A DNA stretch of 64,000 nt. It comes from an uncultured Planctomycetota bacterium. GTDB lineage: Bacteria > Planctomycetota > Planctomycetia > Isosphaerales > Isosphaeraceae. Of this stretch, positions 39,794-50,857 are shown one piece after another. The stretch covers positions 672,001-736,000 of the forward strand of contig CAVTTN010000002.1 in NCBI GenBank assembly GCA_963737655.1, read 5' to 3'. The position numbers and the translations under genes are program-made. Each line of letters opens with the position of its first letter. Within the stretch, counting starts at the first letter, position 1. Below the pieces are notes generated by a model that had not been told where the DNA came from, ran no database searches, and was given only the letters and a program-made list of their open reading frames with translations.

Positions 39794-40903
39794 TCAATCC
39801 TCCTCCTCGGCCTCGTCGTCGTCCTCGAAGATCCCCTTCTTGGCCAGCTCGATCCGCTCCTTCAGCTCGGCGACCTTGCGGGCCTTGTAGAGGACCTCGT
39901 CCTCCTCCACCAGACCCTGCCTCCAGAGGTTGAAGAGCGAGTCGTCCAGGAGGATCATCCCGTGCTTCCGCCCGGTCTGGATCGAGCTGTCGATCCGGTA
40001 CGTCTTGTTCTCGCGGATCAGGTTGGAGATGGCCGGGGTGACGACGAGCATCTCGTACGCGGCCACCAGCCCCTTGGGCTTCCTCGGCAGCAGCGCCTGG
40101 GCCAGGATGCCGATGATCGCCACCGAGAGCTGGGTGCGGATCTGGTCCTGCTGCTCCTTGGGGAACACGTCGATGATCCGGTTGACCGTCCCCTCGGCCG
40201 AGTTCGTGTGGAGGGTGCCGAAGACGATGTGCCCGGTCTCGGCCGCGGTGATCGCCGCCGAGATCGTCGCCAGGTCCCGCATCTCGCCCACGAGGATGAT
40301 GTCCGGGTCCATCCGCAGGGCCCGCTTGATCGCCTCGGGGAAGTCCGGCACGTCGATCCCGATCTCCCGCTGGTTCACCAGGGACTTCTGGTGCTTGTGG
40401 TAATACTCGATCGGGTCCTCGATGGTGATGATGTGGCGGTCCATGTTGTTGTTGATCCAGTTGATCATGGACGCCAGGCTCGTCGTCTTGCCCGAACCCG
40501 TCGGCCCGGTCACGAGGATGAGCCCCCGGGGCCGCGTGATCAACTGCTCGATGACCGCCGGCAGCCCCAGCTGCTCGAACGTCAGGAATTCGTTGGGAAT
40601 CCTCCGAAGGACCAGCCCGATGTTGCCTCGTTGCTTGAACACCGCCACGCGGAACCGCGCCATGTCCCCGAAGGCGAACCCGAAGTCGGTCCCGCCGACC
40701 TCCTGGAGCTCCTGCTGACAGCGCTCGGGCGTGATGCTCTTCATCAGCGCCGAGGTATCCGCCGGCTCCAGGATCTTGGTCGCCAGGGGCCTCATGTGGC
40801 CGTGGAGCCGCAAGGTCGGCTGCGCGCCCACCGTCAGGTGGAGGTCGCTGGCCTTCTGGGTGACCGTCGTCTGCAACAGCTTGTCGATGAGGAGCGTGCC
40901 CAT
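39794..40903 (-). CDS. pilT: Pilus retraction ATPase
   Basis: ASDLHL; GPTGSGKTT; EDPIEY; ALRMDPD; AAETGH; AISNLIRE (AIRNLIRE-like). Confidence 0.93.
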   Translation of the reverse strand: MGTLLIDKLLQTTVTQKASDLHLTVGAQPTLRLHGHMRPLATKILEPADTSALMKSITPERCQQELQEVGGTDFGFAFGDMARFRVAVFKQRGNIGLVLRRIPNEFLTFEQLGLPAVIEQLITRPRGLILVTGPTGSGKTTSLASMINWINNNMDRHIITIEDPIEYYHKHQKSLVNQREIGIDVPDFPEAIKRALRMDPDIILVGEMRDLATISAAITAAETGHIVFGTLHTNSAEGTVNRIIDVFPKEQQDQIRTQLSVAIIGILAQALLPRKPKGLVAAYEMLVVTPAISNLIRENKTYRIDSSIQTGRKHGMILLDDSLFNLWRQGLVEEDEVLYKARKVAELKERIELAKKGIFEDDDEAEEED

Positions 40904-41237
40904 GAAACTCCCTGTCCCCCGCGAAGGACCCTCGACACGGGAGCCGTCCGGGCCCCATCGTCCGAGGACTTGACTTTGTCTCGCAATCCAGATGTCCGGC
41001 CGAACGCAGCGGGGGAGATTTGAGTTACGACGAGAGGACGAGCGTCCCTGTCGCACTCGCATTATTCGGGCGGACTCTCCGAAGACAAGCGCCTTCTCGC
41101 CCGAACCTGCGCCCCCTCGGGACGTTTCACGCGGGCCGAGGGTCCCCACGGAGGCCCGCGACCCCCCGAGTTCGACCCAAAGACGCACGGGCCGAGGGGC
41201 GCCGGGAAGCCCCTCGGCCCGCGGTTGGGTCGCCGAC

Positions 41238-42962
41238 TCAGCCCACCCCGGCCAGAGACTCGTGGTGGGTGATCCGCAAGACCTCGTCGATGGTGGTCAA
41301 ACCCTTCATCGCCTTGATCATGCCGTCCTCGAAGAGAGTGCGCATCCCCTGTTTCCGGGCCGCTTTGCGGATCACCTGGGTCGGCTCCCCCTTGAACGTC
41401 ATCTCGCGGATCGTGTTGGTCATCGACATCAGCTCGTAGATGCCCATCCGTCCACGATAGCCCGACTTGCTGCAATAGGTGCAGCCCTTGCCCTTCATGA
41501 AATTCGCCTTCTTGGCCAGCTCCGGGCGAAGGCCCAAACTCTGGAGGATGTGGCCCGGCGGCTCATACCGGACGCGGCACTTCGGGCAGACCTTCCTCAC
41601 CAGACGCTGGGCCATGATCCCCATGACGGACGAGGCCACCAGGAACGGCTGGACCCCGATATCGACCAGTCTCGTAACAGCACTGGGCGCATCGTTCGTG
41701 TGCAGCGTACTGAAAACCAGGTGTCCGGTCAGGGAGGCCTGGATCGCCGTATTCGCGGTCTCCTCGTCGCGAATCTCGCCCACCAGGAGGATGTTGGGAT
41801 TCTGCCGGAGCATGGCACGGATGATGCGTGCAAACGTCATCCCAATCTTGGCTCGAACCTCGCACTGATTGATGCCGGGCAGGTAGTACTCGACCGGGTC
41901 CTCGGCGGTGATGATCTTGACGTCCGGCCGGTTCAGCTCGTTCAGGGCGGCGTACAGGGTGGTGGTCTTGCCCGACCCGGTCGGCCCGGTCACGAGCAAG
42001 ATGCCGTTGGGCCTCTTGATGAGCTGCGAGAACCTCTTCCAGTCCTCGTCGCCGAAGCCCAGGTCGCGGAGGCCGACCTTGATGTTCTCGCGATCGAGGA
42101 TCCGCATGACGACCGACTGTCCATGCACGGTTGGGATGATGGAGACTCGCAGGTCGATGTCCTTGCCGGCGACGTGGACCTTGATCCGGCCGTCCTGGGG
42201 TCGGCGCTTCTCGGCGATGTCGATCGAGCCCATGATCTTGAGCCGGGAGACCATCGAGCCGAGGAGGCGGCGGGGGGGCGAGTCGCGTTCCATGCAGACG
42301 CCGTCGATCCGATAGCGGATGCGGACGCGGTCGGCGAACGGCTCGATGTGGATGTCCGAGGCCCTCATCGCCACGGCTTCCTGGATGATCAGCTGGACGA
42401 GCCGGATGACCGGGGCGTCCCCCTCGTCGACGCCCCCCGCGCCGCTCCGGCTGCTGCCCCCGCCTTCGTCGGAGAAGTCGATGGCCGTGTCGGTGAATTC
42501 CTGGAGCATCGAGTCGACGGACTCGGTCTCCTGGGAGCTCGACCCGTAATAGCGGTTGATCGCCTCGACGATCGCTTCCTTGGGGGCCAGGGCCATGGTG
42601 ATCTCGCGGTTCAGGACGAACCGGAGCTTCTCGATGGTCTCGAAGTTCAGCGGGTCATGCATGATGACCTTGATCACGCCGTTGTCCTGGGACATCGGCA
42701 TGACGATGTTCTCGCGGGCGAGCGATTCGGGGATCAGCTCGACGACGCCCGAGGGGATCTCGACCTCGCTGAGGTCGACGTAATCCATGTTATGCTGCTC
42801 GGCCTTCGCCTTCATGATCTGGTCGGGATCGGCGTAGGTGAGCTTGACCAGGGCATCCTCGACGTTGACGCCCTTGATGCCCTGGGCCTCCTTCAACTGG
42901 TCGGGGCCGATGACCCCGCGACGGATGAGGATGTCGGTCCACTCGCGGCTCTGCTTGGCCAT
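41238..42962 (-). CDS. pilB: Pilus assembly ATPase (PilB/GspE), copy 1
   Basis: ASDIHIEP; PQDGR; GPTGSGKTTT; LVGEIRD; STLHTNDA; CPKC...CTYC. Confidence 0.93.
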   Translation of the reverse strand: MAKQSREWTDILIRRGVIGPDQLKEAQGIKGVNVEDALVKLTYADPDQIMKAKAEQHNMDYVDLSEVEIPSGVVELIPESLARENIVMPMSQDNGVIKVIMHDPLNFETIEKLRFVLNREITMALAPKEAIVEAINRYYGSSSQETESVDSMLQEFTDTAIDFSDEGGGSSRSGAGGVDEGDAPVIRLVQLIIQEAVAMRASDIHIEPFADRVRIRYRIDGVCMERDSPPRRLLGSMVSRLKIMGSIDIAEKRRPQDGRIKVHVAGKDIDLRVSIIPTVHGQSVVMRILDRENIKVGLRDLGFGDEDWKRFSQLIKRPNGILLVTGPTGSGKTTTLYAALNELNRPDVKIITAEDPVEYYLPGINQCEVRAKIGMTFARIIRAMLRQNPNILLVGEIRDEETANTAIQASLTGHLVFSTLHTNDAPSAVTRLVDIGVQPFLVASSVMGIMAQRLVRKVCPKCRVRYEPPGHILQSLGLRPELAKKANFMKGKGCTYCSKSGYRGRMGIYELMSMTNTIREMTFKGEPTQVIRKAARKQGMRTLFEDGMIKAMKGLTTIDEVLRITHHESLAGVG

Positions 42963-44182: not shown

Positions 44183-46576
44183 ATGAACGCCTCGTTCGCC
44201 GCTTTCATGCTGGCGGTCGTCGTCCCTCCGGGGTTCGTGGTCGATCGCCGGGCCGAGGGACTCACGGGCGCCACGGCGATGGCGATCTCGCCCGATGGCC
44301 GCCTGTTCGTCTGCGAGCAAACCGGCGCGCTCCGGCTGGTGAAGGACGGCCGCCTCCTGGCCGAGCCGTTCGTCCGCCTTCGCGTCGATTCTCGCTGGGA
44401 GCGCGGGCTGATCGGCGTGGCGATCGACCCGGAATTCCCCCGCGAGCCGTTCGTCTACGTGAACTACGTCGCCGACGCCCCGTTCCCCCACCATCGGATC
44501 TCTCGGTTCACGGCCTCGGGCGACCGGGCCGATCCCGAATCGGAAAAAGTCTTGTTCGAGGGGGGCGACCAGGAGAAGCTCGGCGGCTCGGTCCCCTCCG
44601 GGCACCAGGGAGGCGCGATCCACTTCGGCCGGGACGGCAAGCTCTACGTCGCCCTGGGGGAGCAGACCGCCGGCTCGCCCTCTCAGGACCTCCATTCGCT
44701 CCTGGGCAAGCTGTTGAGGATCGACCGCGACGGCTCGATCCCGGCCGATAACCCGTTCTTCGATCGAACCGAGGGCAAGTACCGGGCGATCTGGTGCCTC
44801 GGGCTGAGGAACCCGTTCGGCTTCGCCGTCGATCCCCTCTCCGGCCGGATCTTCCTGAACGACGTGGGGGGCAACTTCGAGGAGATCAACGAGGCCGGGC
44901 CCGGCCGCAACTTCGGCTGGCCGACCGTCGAGCACGGCCCGACGAAGGATTCCCGGTTCGTCGGCCCGATCCACTGGTATCCGACCAGCTCGATCACCGG
45001 AGGGGCCTTCGCCCCGCGAAGCGGCCCGCTCCCGGCCGAGTGGCGGGGCCGGTATTTCTTCCTCGACTTCATGAAGGGCTGGCTCAGGACGCTCGACCCC
45101 GACCGCCCCGGAGACGTCCGCGAATTCGCCTCCGGGCTCGCCCGGCCGACCGACCTGGCCTTCGCCCCGGACGGTTCGCTGTATGTCTTGCAACGCGATG
45201 CCTGGGTGATCGACAAGGATTTCCGACCAGGGACCGGCTCGGTCCTCCGCGTCCGGTTCGAGCCGGGCCCTGGAACCCTTCCGGAGAGGCCGAAGGATGT
45301 CACCATCGGCCCGGTCCCGCCGTTCCCCACGTTCCTGCCGCCCCCGGGCCGCTTCACCGGGCCGATCCGGGTGAGGATCACCGCGAAATCGCCCGTTCGG
45401 TTCACCCTCGACGGCTCGGAGCCCTCCATCGAGTCGCCGATCGCGACCGGGCCAATCCCTCTGGATCGCTCGGCGACCCTGAAAATCCGCCCATTCCGCG
45501 ATGGCCAGCCGATCGGCCCCGCCCTGACAGCCGAATATCGCATCGGGGGCCGAACCGCGTTCGGGCTCGCCGATCGACCGGAGGCCCCGAGGCTCCCGCT
45601 CTCGCTCGACCCGAACTCCTGGCCGAAACGGCTCTCCGAGGTCGGGGCGTTCGCCGACCTCGCCGCGATGACCCCCGCCCCGGGCTTCGTGCCCTTCGCC
45701 GTGAACAGCCCGTTGTGGTCCGACGGCGCGGCGAAGCGGCGATGGATCGCGTTGCCCGGTGGTGCCACGATCGAATTCCGCCCGACCGGCGAATGGCGGT
45801 TCCCTCGCGGGACCGTCTTCGTGAAGCACTTCGAGATGCCCCGAGAAGGCGCCCCTCCGCGACGCCTGGAAACCCGGATCACCGTGGCCGACGGCTCCGG
45901 CCTCGGCGCCGCGGCCACCTATCGCTGGGGAGAGGACGGCCGGGACGCCGACCTCCTCGCCGACGGGCGAGACGAGGCCATCGCCACCTCTTCCGACGCC
46001 TCACGTCGTCAAACCTGGTCCTATCCCTCGCGTGATGATTGTTTGAAGTGCCACACCAGGGCCGCCGGCTTCGTCCTCGGCCCCAGCGCCCGTCAGCTCA
46101 ACGGGCCGTTTCGTTATCCGACGACCGGCATCGAGGACCATCAAATCCGCTCCTGGAGCGCCCAGGGGATGTTTAGTCGGGCGGTCCCGGACGAGGAAAT
46201 CCCGAAGTTAGCGAGGCTCTCGCCGATCTCGGACGAATCGGCGACGGTCGAGCACCGCATTCGGTCGTATCTCGATTCCAATTGCGCCAACTGCCACCGC
46301 CCCGGCGCGAACATCCCGGCGGCCTTCGATGCCCGATGGGACTGCCCCGAAGCCGACCGCAAGATCCTCGACGCCCGGACCGTCAGCGACGGCCTGGGGA
46401 TCGCCAATCCCAGGGTCGTGGCCCCGGGAGACGTCTCCCGGTCGATGATCCATCAAAGGATCATCCAGACCGAGAGGTACAAGATGCCGCCGGTCGGCAG
46501 GAACGTCGTCGATCGCGGAGCGGCCGACCTCCTGGCCGGGTGGATCGCCGGTCTCGGCGGCTCGAAGTCGAAGTAG
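44183..46576 (+). CDS. PQQ-dependent sugar dehydrogenase-like propeller fused to an FN3-like domain and a two-CxxCH cytochrome c domain
   Basis: ERGLIG; HQGGAIHFG.DG.LY; GLRNPF; RFTLDGSEP; PLWSDGA.K.RW; CLKCH; CANCH; MPP. Confidence 0.8.
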   Translation: MNASFAAFMLAVVVPPGFVVDRRAEGLTGATAMAISPDGRLFVCEQTGALRLVKDGRLLAEPFVRLRVDSRWERGLIGVAIDPEFPREPFVYVNYVADAPFPHHRISRFTASGDRADPESEKVLFEGGDQEKLGGSVPSGHQGGAIHFGRDGKLYVALGEQTAGSPSQDLHSLLGKLLRIDRDGSIPADNPFFDRTEGKYRAIWCLGLRNPFGFAVDPLSGRIFLNDVGGNFEEINEAGPGRNFGWPTVEHGPTKDSRFVGPIHWYPTSSITGGAFAPRSGPLPAEWRGRYFFLDFMKGWLRTLDPDRPGDVREFASGLARPTDLAFAPDGSLYVLQRDAWVIDKDFRPGTGSVLRVRFEPGPGTLPERPKDVTIGPVPPFPTFLPPPGRFTGPIRVRITAKSPVRFTLDGSEPSIESPIATGPIPLDRSATLKIRPFRDGQPIGPALTAEYRIGGRTAFGLADRPEAPRLPLSLDPNSWPKRLSEVGAFADLAAMTPAPGFVPFAVNSPLWSDGAAKRRWIALPGGATIEFRPTGEWRFPRGTVFVKHFEMPREGAPPRRLETRITVADGSGLGAAATYRWGEDGRDADLLADGRDEAIATSSDASRRQTWSYPSRDDCLKCHTRAAGFVLGPSARQLNGPFRYPTTGIEDHQIRSWSAQGMFSRAVPDEEIPKLARLSPISDESATVEHRIRSYLDSNCANCHRPGANIPAAFDARWDCPEADRKILDARTVSDGLGIANPRVVAPGDVSRSMIHQRIIQTERYKMPPVGRNVVDRGAADLLAGWIAGLGGSKSK

Positions 46577-46603
46577 GCGTCGGGGCGATGCGGCCCTCCG
46601 GGT

Positions 46604-47194
46604 TCAACGTTCCGCGCCCCGGCCCTCGGTGGGCTCGGATTCGCGCTTCGGCTGGACGTTCACCGTCATCGCCTTCCCGAGCAATCGGGGCAGGTGTTCC
46701 ACCGCCGTCTTGAGGTCCGCCTGGTCGTCATCGAGGTAGAAGGTCGTGGGCTCCCGGCCGCGAAGGGTCAGCGACCAGGAGGCGGAATGGGGCGCATCAT
46801 AAGTGCCCGACGGCGGGTCGAGCCGGGACTTGGCCACCTCGCCCGACCCGACCCGGAGGTTCGTCGGATGGTTGCCCACCGCCTTCGCCGGCCCCTTCGC
46901 GTCGAGCCGGCGCACCGCGGCCCGTTTGGTCAACCAGCCGAGCCCGCCGAGCAGGAGTATGATCGGGATGATCAGAAGCAGGGCAAAGCAACCGTCCGGG
47001 CCCTGCAAGCCCAGGTCCAGCCGGCCTCCGCGAACCAGCCCGAAGACCCAGCGGACCCGGATCAGGTAAAGGGCGTCCGGGCCGACATACACGCGATACA
47101 GGGGCCAGCCCACCTCACCCTTCACCCGGGCGTTGAAGGCGGGCCACTCCCCGAGGGCCCGGATTCGCTCGGTCCCCTCGTCTGGTTCCCCCAT
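46604..47194 (-). CDS. Hypothetical membrane protein directly downstream of the RT
   Basis: ATG 22 nt after the RT stop, GGAG upstream; strong TM CFALLLIIPIILLLGGLGWL. Confidence 0.65.
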   Translation of the reverse strand: MGEPDEGTERIRALGEWPAFNARVKGEVGWPLYRVYVGPDALYLIRVRWVFGLVRGGRLDLGLQGPDGCFALLLIIPIILLLGGLGWLTKRAAVRRLDAKGPAKAVGNHPTNLRVGSGEVAKSRLDPPSGTYDAPHSASWSLTLRGREPTTFYLDDDQADLKTAVEHLPRLLGKAMTVNVQPKRESEPTEGRGAER

Positions 47195-47216
47195 GTCTCG
47201 ATTCGCTCCGCCCGCC

Positions 47217-48557
47217 CTACCCGGACTGTTCCGGGTCCCGGTCCCTCCAGTCGATGCGACCGAACATCTCATGCAACTTTCGGCCCCGATCGGGATGAAG
47301 CGAGGCGACATGGGCGATCCGGCCCAGCAGATGCGCCCGGAAATCGTCGTGAGGCCGTCGATTCTGCCCGAGAGGGCCGTGCCTCACGCAGTTGTGAAGG
47401 ATCGCCTTCAACGTGTCGTAGTCGCCACGAACCACATTGGGCCGCTCGTTGAGCACCACGCCCGCGACCCGCTGGCGGACGCCCCGTCTCATGATCCGCG
47501 TCTTGCGCGTGTGGACCTCGAACCCCTCTTCCAGCGCGATGGCGCCGACCTGGATGGAGAATCGGCCGACGGATCGCTCGAAATCCCGATCGCCGGAGAA
47601 GGCCAGGTCGTCGGCATAGCGGGTGTAACGGGCCCCCGAGGACTCGGCCAGGGCGGAGAGGCGGACGTCCAGGCGATGGGCGGCCAGGTTGGCCAGGGCC
47701 GGGGAGGTTGGCGCCCCCTGGGGCAGGTGGGGATGCTCATGGAGACGGCGAAACCGCCAGGAATCGGCCGTCCGGGGAGGGGCCGCGGGATCGTTCCAGA
47801 CCGAGCCCGGCACGCGGTTGGTGGCCAGCCCCGAGAGCAAACGGGCCACCGGCTCGGGATAGCCGGCGGTCAGGAACAGGGCCGTCACCCGGGCCGAGGA
47901 GATCGTCGGAAAGAAGTCCTTCAGGTCCATCTTCAGCACCACGCGACGCCCCACGTGCGGATCGACGAAGGTGCGAATCGATCGACCCGGTCGAAAGCCG
48001 TGGACCGAGTCGTGAGGGGGGATCATCGCCACGATCTCGCGGAGGGCCCGCCTCTGGACCAGCTTCAGGCGAGGCCGGGGGGCTTCGACCAGGCGAAAGG
48101 CCCCCGATCGCTTGGCGACCCAGCGATACGAGTAGCGCCTCGGGGCACCCGCCGGAGACCTCCGCTCAAGCCCCCGGGGATCGGCCAGCCATTCCAGCTC
48201 GCGGAGGCCGATTTGGAGCTGATCGGCCAGGGCCGAGGGGGTCGTCAACGGCGGGACCGGCCAGGAGGACGGCAAGCCCGGGGCGGGCCACATCACGGCC
48301 GGCGGATCGAGCGGCCGAGGCCCCGTCCGCAAGTCGGGCAATCCGGCGCAACCGCGACAAAACCCCCGATCCCGCAGAAAGAAATCGACCAGCCGCCCCG
48401 AGGTCGGGCGAGTCGGAGTCGCAAATTCCACCAGGACCCGCCGGAGGAGCGAAGCCATCCACCGAGGCCGCCGACCCAGGGCCGATCGCGCCCTCTCCGC
48501 AAGGTCTTCCTTCCGCCAGGGGCCCAGGACCAGGGCCTCGGCCAGGCGACGAGCCAC
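47217..48557 (-). CDS. Retron-type RNA-directed DNA polymerase
   Basis: KRSG..R.VEAP...LK.VQR; HGF..GRS; DLKDFFPTI; LPQGAPTSPALAN; YTRYADDLAFS; QRVAGVVLN (VTG-like region Y). Confidence 0.93.
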   Translation of the reverse strand: MARRLAEALVLGPWRKEDLAERARSALGRRPRWMASLLRRVLVEFATPTRPTSGRLVDFFLRDRGFCRGCAGLPDLRTGPRPLDPPAVMWPAPGLPSSWPVPPLTTPSALADQLQIGLRELEWLADPRGLERRSPAGAPRRYSYRWVAKRSGAFRLVEAPRPRLKLVQRRALREIVAMIPPHDSVHGFRPGRSIRTFVDPHVGRRVVLKMDLKDFFPTISSARVTALFLTAGYPEPVARLLSGLATNRVPGSVWNDPAAPPRTADSWRFRRLHEHPHLPQGAPTSPALANLAAHRLDVRLSALAESSGARYTRYADDLAFSGDRDFERSVGRFSIQVGAIALEEGFEVHTRKTRIMRRGVRQRVAGVVLNERPNVVRGDYDTLKAILHNCVRHGPLGQNRRPHDDFRAHLLGRIAHVASLHPDRGRKLHEMFGRIDWRDRDPEQSG

Positions 48558-48581
48558 GCGGCGGGTTCGCGAAGGATAAGA

Positions 48582-48751
48582 CAGCGGCGGCGCTCCAACC
48601 CGTCTCGTCCGGCGTGAGCAGTTCTACGTGAAGCGTAGTCCCGCTCACGCCTCGCCTGGGACCAAATCAAACGCTCCCCCGGGGTAACCCCGGAGAGGTG
48701 GGAAGCCATCGCGAGACGGCCGAACCACCCGCTTGGAAAACGCCGCCGCTG
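48582..48751 (-). ncRNA. Putative retron msr-msd RNA
   Basis: Terminal inverted repeats CAGCGGCGGCG (48582-48592 and 48741-48751) extended by TCCAA/TTGGA; AAGC candidate branch G at 48732; two msr-like stem-loops (48697-48729, 48674-48697); msd-like hairpin 48607-48662. Confidence 0.75.
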
Positions 48752-48759
48752 ATCCGCTG

Positions 48760-48788
48760 AACATAAGGGCGACCTCGACGGATGTCAA
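48760..48788 (-). promoter_or_regulatory. Sigma70-type promoter for the retron transcript
   Basis: TTGACA (48788-48783), 17-nt spacer, TATGTT (48765-48760); predicted start near 48753, just before the first inverted repeat. Confidence 0.75.
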
Positions 48789-48967
48789 GGTCTTTCGATC
48801 CTTCCCGAACGACCGCAAAAGGGAGCAACACGGGGAAAGGGAACGTGCCGGAAAGCAGCAATTGCATGCAATGCTTCGCTCCGTCCCCCTTGCGCGCCCT
48901 ATACTTCCCCTATCGCCGCCTGCTCGTGGTCACGCATTGACCACGTCACGAGGAGGCCAAAGGTCTT

Positions 48968-50857
48968 CTACGGAGCCTTCCTGACCTGTTTTGTGATCCG
49001 ATGCGCGGTCGCCTTCTTGGCAACAGTTGCGGAGTTGGCCATCGGCAGCACGGGGTGACGGTTGAACTGGAACCGCCCCTGGAAGTCGCCCCCGGGTTGG
49101 GCGTTGCCGGTCGGGAACTTGCCCGTGAATTCGCCGTCGAGCGCCTTGCCCGCGAGGTCGACGATGCCTCCGGAATGGACCACGATCACGTATCGCCCGT
49201 GGCGCAGAGGGCGACCGCCGTTGATCGTCAGCGCCACGGTCCGCGACGTGCCGTCCAATCCCGAGACGCTCACGCCCGTGATCGCGACGGGCTTGTGACC
49301 GAACGATGAGAACGGGCCAAGCACCGCGTAATTCGCCACGGTGGTCAGCGACGCCAGGTCCAGGCCGTTCGGGGCGGAGAACGTGAGGAGCACTTGCCCC
49401 CTGGCGTATTGGACGGTCGCCGCCGTGATCTGGGGCCCGTCGCTACTGACCGGGGTACTGCCCGACGAACCACTTCCGGACGAATCGCTGCCGGACGATC
49501 CGCCGCCGGACGATCCGCCGCCGGACGAACCGCCGCCGGACGAACCGCCGCCGGACGAACCGCCGCCGGACGATCCGCCGCCGGACGATCCGCTGTCGGA
49601 CGATCCCGTGCCGGTGAGGAGGATTCCAACCTCGGCCGGGTTGGTTGTGACGGTCATCAGGTCGGCGAGGCCGTCGCCGTTGAGGTCGCCGGCCGCCAGG
49701 TCGCTCGCGCCATTGAACCCGACGCTGGGGACCGGGATGGGGGCGCTTGTGACGAAATGGCCATCGCCGCTCCCTGGCGCGACGCGGACCTCGTTCAGCG
49801 GATACGTCGGGACCGCCAGATCGATCTTGCCGTCGCCGTTGAAGTCGCCTGCCACCAGCGTGCCCGACGCGGCCCCGAACCCGACGAAGGCGTTGGGAAT
49901 TGCGGCGAACGTGCCGTCGCCGATGCCGCCCAGGACGATCACGCTCCCATCGTCCTGGTTCACGGCCGCCAGGTCGAGCTTGCCGTCGCCGTTGAAATCC
50001 GCCCGGACCAGGCTCGAGGATGCGAAGCCGATCGGGGTCGTCCCGCCCAGGCGGAACGTGCCGTCGCCGTTGCCCAGAAAGGTTTGTTCCGAGGTCGAGT
50101 TGAGCGTGACCCCCGCCAGGTCGAGCTTGCCATCGCCGTTGAAGTCACCGGCCACCAGTCCGGGCGCCACGGCGGTCGAGAGGCCGAGGTCCCCGGCCGA
50201 CCCCGCCGCGTGGAGCGTCCCGTCCCGCTCGCCCAGGAAAGCCAGGACCGGACCGGTCACCGGGCCGATGGGCGGAGGGGAACCGGGTTGGGCGAAGGGC
50301 GGCGGTGGGCCGGACATGAGCTTGGCCCCGTACGCCACGGCGAGGTCCGAGACCCCGTCGCCGTTGAAGTCGCCCGCCACGAGGCGCGTGGGGACGGGGT
50401 AGCTCGGGTCGATCACCCCGAAGCCCGGGGCCGTCGCCCCCAGCTGGAACGTGCCGTCGCCGTTGCCCAGGAACTCGATCACGATCGCGTTGTTGCTCGC
50501 GTCGACCCCCGTCGAGGCCACGTCGAGCTTGCCGTCGCCGTTGAAGTCCCCCACGGCGAGATTCCCGCTCAGGGCGGGCGTGGCCGTGTCAAAGGAGCCG
50601 ATGAACCCGCCCTTGCCGTCCCCCAGCAGGGTCGTGATCACCCCTCCCTGGGCTGATCCGTTGTATTGCGGCGTTTCCGTCACAACGTCGAGCTTGCCGT
50701 CGCCGTTGAAGTCGCCCGTCGCGACCGAATTCGCGCCGGTGGCCACCGGGTAGACCACCGCCGGGCGGAACGCAACCGTCAGGAGCAGACGGGCTTCGAG
50801 CCCGTCGAGGACCGGGCGAACGCTCTGCGGAAGTCGGTTTCGAGGCTTCAGGTTCAT
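48968..50857 (-). CDS. Secreted FG-GAP/VCBS-repeat protein with Gly/Ser linker
   Basis: LEARLLL export motif; seven (G/A)D(F/L)NGDG..D repeats; (SSGGG)n linker; C-terminal DL.G..LDGE...GG.F domain. Confidence 0.9.
   Translation of the reverse strand: MNLKPRNRLPQSVRPVLDGLEARLLLTVAFRPAVVYPVATGANSVATGDFNGDGKLDVVTETPQYNGSAQGGVITTLLGDGKGGFIGSFDTATPALSGNLAVGDFNGDGKLDVASTGVDASNNAIVIEFLGNGDGTFQLGATAPGFGVIDPSYPVPTRLVAGDFNGDGVSDLAVAYGAKLMSGPPPPFAQPGSPPPIGPVTGPVLAFLGERDGTLHAAGSAGDLGLSTAVAPGLVAGDFNGDGKLDLAGVTLNSTSEQTFLGNGDGTFRLGGTTPIGFASSSLVRADFNGDGKLDLAAVNQDDGSVIVLGGIGDGTFAAIPNAFVGFGAASGTLVAGDFNGDGKIDLAVPTYPLNEVRVAPGSGDGHFVTSAPIPVPSVGFNGASDLAAGDLNGDGLADLMTVTTNPAEVGILLTGTGSSDSGSSGGGSSGGGSSGGGSSGGGSSGGGSSGGGSSGSDSSGSGSSGSTPVSSDGPQITAATVQYARGQVLLTFSAPNGLDLASLTTVANYAVLGPFSSFGHKPVAITGVSVSGLDGTSRTVALTINGGRPLRHGRYVIVVHSGGIVDLAGKALDGEFTGKFPTGNAQPGGDFQGRFQFNRHPVLPMANSATVAKKATAHRITKQVRKAP
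49490..49605. repeat. 15-bp coding tandem repeat (SSGGG linker)
   Basis: CCGCCGCCGGACGA(T/A) repeated about 6-7 times. Confidence 0.85.

Follow-up and report, generated by a model that had tools for sequence, protein, structure and literature searches.

The retron locus and its template RNA

The window is the whole 64,000-nucleotide stretch analysed, taken from contig CAVTTN010000002.1 of an uncultured planctomycete of the family Isosphaeraceae. On its minus strand, a promoter, an msr-msd template RNA and a retron reverse transcriptase (RT) gene follow one another directly. The features are listed in the order of transcription, with the evidence for each in parentheses.

48783..48788, minus: -35 box TTGACA of the retron promoter (promoter search)
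48789-48774, minus: degenerate operator of 5.4 bits overlapping the -35 box (matrix score)
48760..48765, minus: -10 box TATGTT, with a predicted transcription start at about 48753 (promoter search)
48749..48764, minus: candidate LexA (SOS) operator ATGTTC-AGCG-GATCAG over the -10 box and start site (matrix score)
48733..48751, minus: 5' arm of the a1/a2 duplex, comprising CAGCGGCGGCG (48751-48741), TTT and TCCAA (48737-48733) (sequence, fold, covariation)
48732, minus: predicted branching G for 2'-OH priming, unpaired, opposite G48599 (fold and retron biochemistry)
48697..48729, minus: msr stem-loop 1, variable in sequence but conserved in presence (fold, 48-locus comparison)
48677..48695, minus: msr stem-loop 2, CTCCGGGG-TTA-CCCCGGGG, 8 bp, with G4, a 3-nt loop and C4 (covariation)
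48664..48671, minus: AT-rich linker TTTGATTT, likely the RT termination region (sequence and Khan et al.)
48611..48651, minus: msd hairpin with a 9-bp lower stem, an internal loop and a 5-bp upper stem, CTACG/CGTAG (covariation, DNA fold)
48599..48610, minus: segment from the facing G up to the msd hairpin (sequence)
48582..48598, minus: 3' arm of the a1/a2 duplex; GGAG (48596-48593) and CTG (48584-48582), the probable start codon of the RT, lie within it (frame comparison, fold)
47217..48584, minus: clade-11 retron RT, 455 aa counted from the CTG; its N-terminal domain (about 80 aa) is basic and has five helices (profile matches, structure models, tree)

All of the elements that an earlier sequence-only reading had assigned to an msr-msd RNA were present on the minus strand from 48751 to 48582. 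The RNA folded with an MFE of -105 kcal/mol (z -5.54), and equal stability was reached in 0 of 200 shuffles. The a1/a2 terminal inverted repeat, which in retrons exceeds 8 bp, was 16-17 bp long in the window and at least 10 bp in 48/48 loci, and the window RNA contained the one to three msr hairpins and long msd stem-loop by which retrons are recognised. The unpaired probability was 0.97 for G48732 and 0.96 for the facing G48599. Stem-loop 2 was found as described, but its stem of 8 bp is longer than the CCGGGG/CCCCGG first noted; it may be the hairpin recognised by the RT. The description of the RNA as unannotated held for Rfam, where no family matched at E ≤ 1, though the family itself almost certainly corresponds to the Outgroup A/B model already published for clade 11.

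The RNA was compared in an alignment (A1) of 48 loci, made up of the window, 39 family loci and 8 others. L032 (a duplicate of L123), L041 and L042 (upstream RNA absent in the locus) and L039 were left out; the RNA is present in L039 at 47 bits. By our own count, using matches of at least 47% identity, the RT occurs in about 47 of 120 family genomes, and for 7 of the 47, plus G051, the flanks lay outside the locus set. The RNA was found at all 39 family loci fetched with flanks, separated from the RT by an insertion sequence (IS) in one.

The covariation expected of such an RNA was found in its homologues, with two-sided change in 18 of 28 consensus pairs, a count reached by 0 of 500 shuffles (mean 8.2), while controls with a slid alignment gave 5-8. 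Kinship inflates these counts, but the slid controls retain the same kinship. The RNAalifold consensus of the 48 loci retained the inner arms, stem-loop 2 and both msd stems, with 98.2% of cells paired, and folds with z below -3 were obtained for 45 of the 48 loci. Covariation was present in the inner a1/a2 arm. Stem-loop 2 was the most conserved element (99.7% of cells paired, two-sided change in 3/8 pairs), and stem-loop 1 fell outside the consensus structure, yet at least 6 bp were formed there in 47/48 sequences. Both stems of the msd hairpin covaried (10 of 13 consensus pairs changed on both sides), but the outer GTCC/GGAC stem proposed for it paired in only 21, 1, 27 and 29 of the 48 rows at its four positions.

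The AGC branch site was conserved as AG, but the C that follows was present in just 36/48 loci. The priming G was unpaired in 42 of 48 MFE folds. The constancy of the branch G and of the G facing it is in part built in, since the patterns used to anchor 43 of the 48 rows of A1 demand AG at the branch and leave little freedom at the facing position; loci found without such patterns (five nhmmer rows, L141-L144 and L146-L149) also have AG there and a G opposite. Stem-loop 2 and the facing G were 75-80 nt apart in 48/48 loci.

A covariance model of the RNA gave matches in 5 of 150 genomes of the phylum, and for four of these the RT lay in the fetched locus. At one phylum relative (L141:377-1692) the RNA is present and the RT match starts 84 nt downstream; because it starts at query residue 95, the N-terminal domain of that RT appears to be missing. 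The same model placed the RNA in front of the Burkholderia RTs, at about 58 bits, and of the Dietzia and (weakly) Tsukamurella RTs; the Mycobacteriales scores were 36 and 19 bits. These scores lean towards OutgroupA over OutgroupB, short of an assignment. Among 56 more distant RT loci there was no match at E < 0.01. Viral contigs contained one exact match to stem-loop 2, with no RT adjoining.

Assignment of the RNA to a retron was borne out, as a retron RT lies directly downstream and the RNA both covaries and travels with that RT. Synthesis of a branched msDNA by this element is very likely. The template start had been placed at about 48599, and both G48600 and G48599 fit as the first copied base: presumably it is G48600 if the facing G is skipped, as in the geometry of Ec86, and otherwise G48599. 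According to Khan et al. (bioRxiv 10.1101/2024.01.25.577267; PMC10849725), copying most often begins at a G and typically ends before an AT-rich stretch; these rules, applied to this RNA, predict an msDNA of 65-78 nt. With the role of the priming G taken from retron biochemistry (PMC6868368, PMC7736814), G48732 as the branch G of an msDNA of that length is the best reading of the sequence. The predicted length and 5' end were tightly conserved among the loci; clade 11 falls by implication under 'intermediate production' in Khan et al. (PMC10849725).

The reverse transcriptase, its start codon and its neighbours

The RT scored 508 bits with PADLOC model RT_other, 480 with RT_outgroup and 307 with RT_XIII, and no retron model in NCBIfam reached its cut-off. 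Its AlphaFold model (pLDDT 93) was structurally closest to retron RTs, with Ec86 RT at E 8.5e-21. YADD is at residues 314-317 and is shared by 112 of 113 homologues, and LPQG by 113/113. The most conserved residues of the NAxxH and VTG motifs are the region X histidine and the region Y glycine (PMC7736814); among the 113 homologues H201 was invariant and G366 was present in at least 90%, within motifs that read F[VA]xxH and [VAL]AG in place of NAxxH/VTG. The AG variant is common to four RTs of the plasmid collection, and FAAPH to two Burkholderia RTs. A quick tree built from 62 RTs, with 8 split rows excluded, placed the window RT in a clade with the Tsukamurella, Dietzia and Burkholderia RTs (SH-aLRT 100) that stands apart from type XIII. 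Named homologues at 59-62% identity were from Isosphaeraceae; RTs are on deposit for two cultured relatives, Aquisphaera insulae (WP_250846813.1) and Tundrisphaera sp. TA3 (WP_435021650.1).

The RT belongs to the stand-alone clade-11 ('outgroup') retrons, whose members share its tree clade and best HMM match and are likewise two-part cassettes with no accessory gene (PMC7736814; PADLOC RT_outgroup). The Burkholderia, Dietzia and Tsukamurella clade-11 loci have the same RNA plan and the same [LV]AG variant in region Y. As a retron, then, the element is not new: it adds one member to a lineage already catalogued, also in Planctomycetota. A 2026 survey (PMC13712802) equates clade 11 with the OutgroupA/B RNA models (clade11-A/-B), counts 6 clade11-A and 11 clade11-B members in Planctomycetales (Table S3) and ranks the clade as low priority; in the accessible part of the census of Khan et al. 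(PMC10849725), Planctomycetota are absent among the 18 clade-11 retrons.

The nearest RT relatives are those of type XIII (clade 10; Mx162, Mx65, Sa163, Ne144), at about 41-45% identity over residues 100-435. They differ in having ARM and SWIM partners and canonical NAxxH/ITG motifs and in lacking this N-terminal domain, and their loci gave no match to the RNA model. Retron-Eco5 (Ec107), from an orphan branch of clade 2, is also effector-less, with expression reported to be starvation-responsive (PMC6868368), but it has an RT of a different clade (170 vs 480 bits), which is also shorter, and a different RNA.

The N-terminal domain was modelled with a pLDDT of 88.7 (atlas score 0.79) and is basic (median net charge +7). 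It had no Foldseek match at E ≤ 0.001, and a search for toxin-like folds found none, the best VIA-align Z of 5.4 being within the noise of helical domains. Among the best 150 of 751 matches to a profile of the domain, 96 run on into an RT, 46 end within 45 aa and the remaining 8 have unmatched tails that look frameshift-like by eye; no stand-alone copy was present among these 150, just these RTs or fragments. The model and its matches point to neither a new fold nor a function. The gene call on record for the RT is 358 aa and is without this domain. Several RT copies in the family are split, many of them in low-completeness assemblies, where the splits are probably sequencing indels.

Judged from the sequence, the RT probably starts at CTG 48584, so that both GGAG and the start codon lie within the 3' arm, which would correct the RT start for this gene. 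Of 44 cases with an NTG located 13-22 nt past the facing G, 34 had it in the RT frame, even though that frame shifts against the arm from locus to locus. The codon, CTG in 22 loci, interchanges with TTG, GTG and ATG, and in about ten loci it is the sole in-frame start before the conserved domain. An in-arm start was found in 27/32 loci with a GGAG arm versus 2/15 with other arms. One locus (L106) was excluded from the start-codon count owing to its IS, a TnpB-like element (family judged from sequence; L106:6555-7815) inserted right after the in-arm CTG. With the new GGGGAG and in-frame GTG that the right end of that IS brings in, RT synthesis may continue there, uncoupled from the arm.

In the folded window transcript, GGAG and CTG were at most 5% unpaired. 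Opening the ribosome footprint cost 22.9 kcal/mol with the 5' arm and 18.1 without it (a share of about 5 for the 5' arm); as opening still costs 18.1 kcal/mol without that arm, the occlusion does not come from the 5' arm alone. We lean towards a competition between translation and priming on one transcript. The annotated starts of the Burkholderia and Actinobacteria clade-11 copies are ATG codons just past the arm, whereas in the window the ribosome-binding site and start would be inside it. In the type VI retron Vpa2 (bioRxiv 10.1101/2025.10.22.683967) a ribosome-binding site and start are likewise sequestered in the retron RNA, but the hidden start is that of a small toxin and is released by msDNA, while here it would be that of the RT itself, in the priming duplex. 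Khan et al. (PMC10849725) remark in general that ribosome-binding sites can occur within retron RNAs. No report of an in-arm RT start was found in the literature searched, whose coverage is poor for subscription journals, including older retron papers.

An all-versus-all comparison of 5334 ORFs from the 48 loci found no recurring neighbour; the largest non-RT clusters occurred in 12/48 loci, at variable positions, and the window's own neighbours recurred in 0 of 47 other loci. When compared with Pfam, the 73 nearest genes were housekeeping or typical planctomycete genes. PADLOC models matched 8 of 136 neighbours, through generic kinase, methyltransferase, protease and HEAT-repeat domains. HEAT/ARM and SWIM genes, which define type XIII, were absent near the window RT, and the 136 neighbours included one HEAT-ARM domain match and no SWIM. 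The element thus has no associated protein cluster, as is characteristic of clade 11.

Several neighbouring genes were noted individually. A 196-aa membrane-like ORF (47194-46604), on the same strand and 22 nt past the RT stop, has a hydrophobic segment and no Pfam family; it was rejected as an effector, having no match in the 47 other loci. Its homologues occur in 6/120 family genomes, three of which also hold the RT (G007, G040, G070), on other contigs. An FG-GAP repeat protein with a Gly-Ser linker (48968-50857) lies upstream of the promoter and has no match in the 47 other loci. Two genes at 39794-42962 resemble type IV pilus / type II secretion ATPases, which from their translations we take to be PilT-like and PilB-like. 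In a single case (L125:6219-7187), a gene for the exonuclease VII large subunit is divergent from the retron copy.

Elsewhere in the window genome there is a type XIII retron system with HEAT-ARM, SWIM and RT genes (G000:C2:6179341-6191328; L139:341-12328). Its RT frame extends to 1381 aa with a tail that has no match in 24 related loci, probably a sequencing frameshift. At another locus (L124, G086:C241), one contig carries a type XIII-like RT at 2.7 kb from a clade-11 RT. Use of type XIII effectors in trans was considered and rejected as a requirement, because five genomes that contain the clade-11 retron alone (92-99% complete) had no SWIM_XIII match.

The promoter and a candidate LexA operator

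The sequence TTGACA-17-TATGTT (48788-48760) was the only promoter-like site in 46300-49100, against 0.1 in shuffles, and a TTGACA-like box was found upstream of 43/48 loci versus 12/95 control windows. Beyond what the sequence-only reading had proposed, this promoter appears to hold a candidate operator, which together with the probable RT start codon in the 3' arm is what the present analysis adds.

The recA promoters of the family carry a 6-4-6 palindrome, with a 4-nt spacer, in 23 of 29 seed sites. The family consensus, GTGTAC-N4-GTACAC (from L152-L211 and L257-L306), lies upstream of recA, lexA, uvrA and the main dnaE, and this gene set suggests that the palindrome is the site bound by the family's LexA. 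This gives a candidate LexA motif for this planctomycete family. An operator upstream of the main dnaE is unusual. Among held-out dnaE promoters, 9/25 scored at least 10 bits versus 4/245 controls, and the lexA of a lexA-dnaE2 cassette had a 12.9-bit site. No uvrA promoter reached 10 bits, and a site was found in 0/25 ssb promoters. The degenerate sites of the lexA and uvrA promoters, GAC-N4-GTAYA, are shaped like those of the retrons. A four-gene matrix was then built from the recA, lexA, uvrA and dnaE promoters of the family, with retron sites excluded from training. In the window genome, where lexA is single-copy, this matrix gave 10.3 bits for recA, 9.7 for lexA and 12.9 for dnaE.

With a matrix derived mostly from recA the window operator scored 13.8 bits, which puts it in the top 13 of 7.63 million positions; the four-gene matrix gave it 10.9 bits (rank 141), on a par with the genome's own recA and lexA sites. 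Most other top-scoring sites in this genome precede unrelated genes, so the matrix is not specific by itself. One 13.3-bit site lies between priA and a cytidylyltransferase-like gene.

With the retron-free matrix, 23 of 40 family retron promoters scored at least 6 bits, compared to 15 of 270 control promoters; at 10 bits or more the difference (2/40 versus 4/270) was not significant, and the p-values are overstated because the loci are related. Most sites in the family are weak (7.8-9.9 bits), and 17/40 loci had no site of at least 6 bits, including both loci from the same genus (L100 and L103). A strong half-site followed TTGAC in 20/40 retron loci, with a spacer of 4 in 20 cases and another spacer once. 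The corresponding backgrounds were 47/8298 for genomic, 1/271 for promoter-like and 0/232 for intergenic occurrences of TTGAC. The operator overlaps promoter elements, namely the -35 box in 20 relatives and the -10 box and start in the window. Sites of the -35 type are spread over several distinct RT sub-lineages; in the window and in L116/L120 the site has shifted to the -10 box and start.

Outside the family, 1 of 8 loci scored, and four Burkholderia/Actinobacteria promoters compared with two SOS boxes gave one loose match; an SOS switch is therefore not clade-wide. No operator was found directly upstream of 25 type XIII RT genes, a weak control as these genes are inside operons. At one family locus (L102:7561-15743) the retron lies directly upstream of a cassette with a second lexA and a dnaE2-type polymerase; the cassette has its own operator and the retron promoter there is without a site.

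LexA/SOS control of the retron promoter is probable on these comparisons. The family's candidate motif may resemble a LexA motif reported from Verrucomicrobia. Neither a link between retrons and LexA nor a paper defining a planctomycete LexA box was found in the literature searched, which covers few subscription journals. The accessible text of the clade-11 survey (PMC13712802) has 0 occurrences of a LexA, SOS or promoter link.

Proposed mechanism and alternative explanations

With a probability of roughly 60%, we read the locus as an intact two-part clade-11 retron whose promoter is probably under host LexA/SOS control, working as follows. A single sigma-70 transcript from about 48753 would comprise the msr-msd RNA and the RT gene. 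LexA bound over the -10 box and start would hold expression low until DNA damage or phage-derived ssDNA activates RecA. Each transcript would be either translated or folded into primer-template, as the ribosome-binding site and weak CTG would lie within the 3' arm, and the RT would thereby be kept scarce. When the arms pair, the RT would bind stem-loop 2 and prime from the 2'-OH of G48732. Copying would begin at G48600 (or G48599), pass through the msd hairpin and stop at about 48664-48677; the resulting branched msDNA would be 65-78 nt long, its hairpin of fixed length and its 5' end single-stranded and conserved. As there is no toxin gene, the RT-msDNA particle would most likely act in trans, binding or decoying a DNA-handling protein during the damage response, and the basic N-terminal domain could be a docking or effector module. 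The decoy role is doubtful. A version in which the upper stem of the msd decoys LexA was dropped because similar stems occur in the Burkholderia and Actinobacteria loci.

The operator evidence would serve equally if the operator were real but armed an anti-phage or anti-prophage function once phage DNA triggers RecA, with no part in repair. We regard this as possible though not favoured. A sensor would be expected to conserve its msDNA length and 5' end as tightly as was observed, and the sister clade 10 (type XIII) has accessory genes (PMC7736814). The neighbours of the clade-11 copies, however, are not defence islands, the N-terminal domain yielded no toxin-like fold, and one copy precedes the lexA-dnaE2 mutagenesis cassette.

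A constitutive anti-phage retron, with an effector encoded elsewhere or supplied by the RT N-terminal domain, would make the palindrome a by-product of the -35/-10 sequences or the site of another regulator. We consider it rather unlikely, as the half-site is bound to one spacer and is absent after control -35 boxes, no neighbour recurs and the few PADLOC matches are to generic domains. The 17 of 40 loci without an operator are in its favour, and characterised retrons are defence toxin-antitoxin systems (PMC7736814, PMC11951105). A type XIII retron with its ARM and SWIM genes is also present in many family genomes, among them the window genome, but the five genomes with the clade-11 retron alone do not have SWIM_XIII. 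That the element is a functionless or selfish relic left after effector loss is very unlikely: its spread is patchy, one copy is interrupted by the TnpB-type IS and several are split (many of them probably by sequencing indels), but the catalytic motifs, promoter, msd length, compensatory pairs and start codon are conserved across RTs that are only 44-68% identical.

The most likely reading of the element is a particle of RT and msDNA that is induced by damage, kept at low copy number and active in trans. We suggest tentatively that in Isosphaeraceae an effector-less retron may have been domesticated into the SOS regulon, where cleavage of LexA would turn on its branched hairpin DNA, the particle serving damage repair, tolerance or mutagenesis and not a toxin-antitoxin system. 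Mestre et al. (2020, PMC7736814) left it open whether orphan retrons have unknown effectors in trans or another function. The candidate operator is a clue that these effector-less retrons are switched on by DNA damage, and it names a condition under which expression and a phenotype may be sought in cultured, non-pathogenic relatives. If true, an SOS-domesticated retron would be a non-defence, host-regulated role for retrons and would answer what orphan retrons do.
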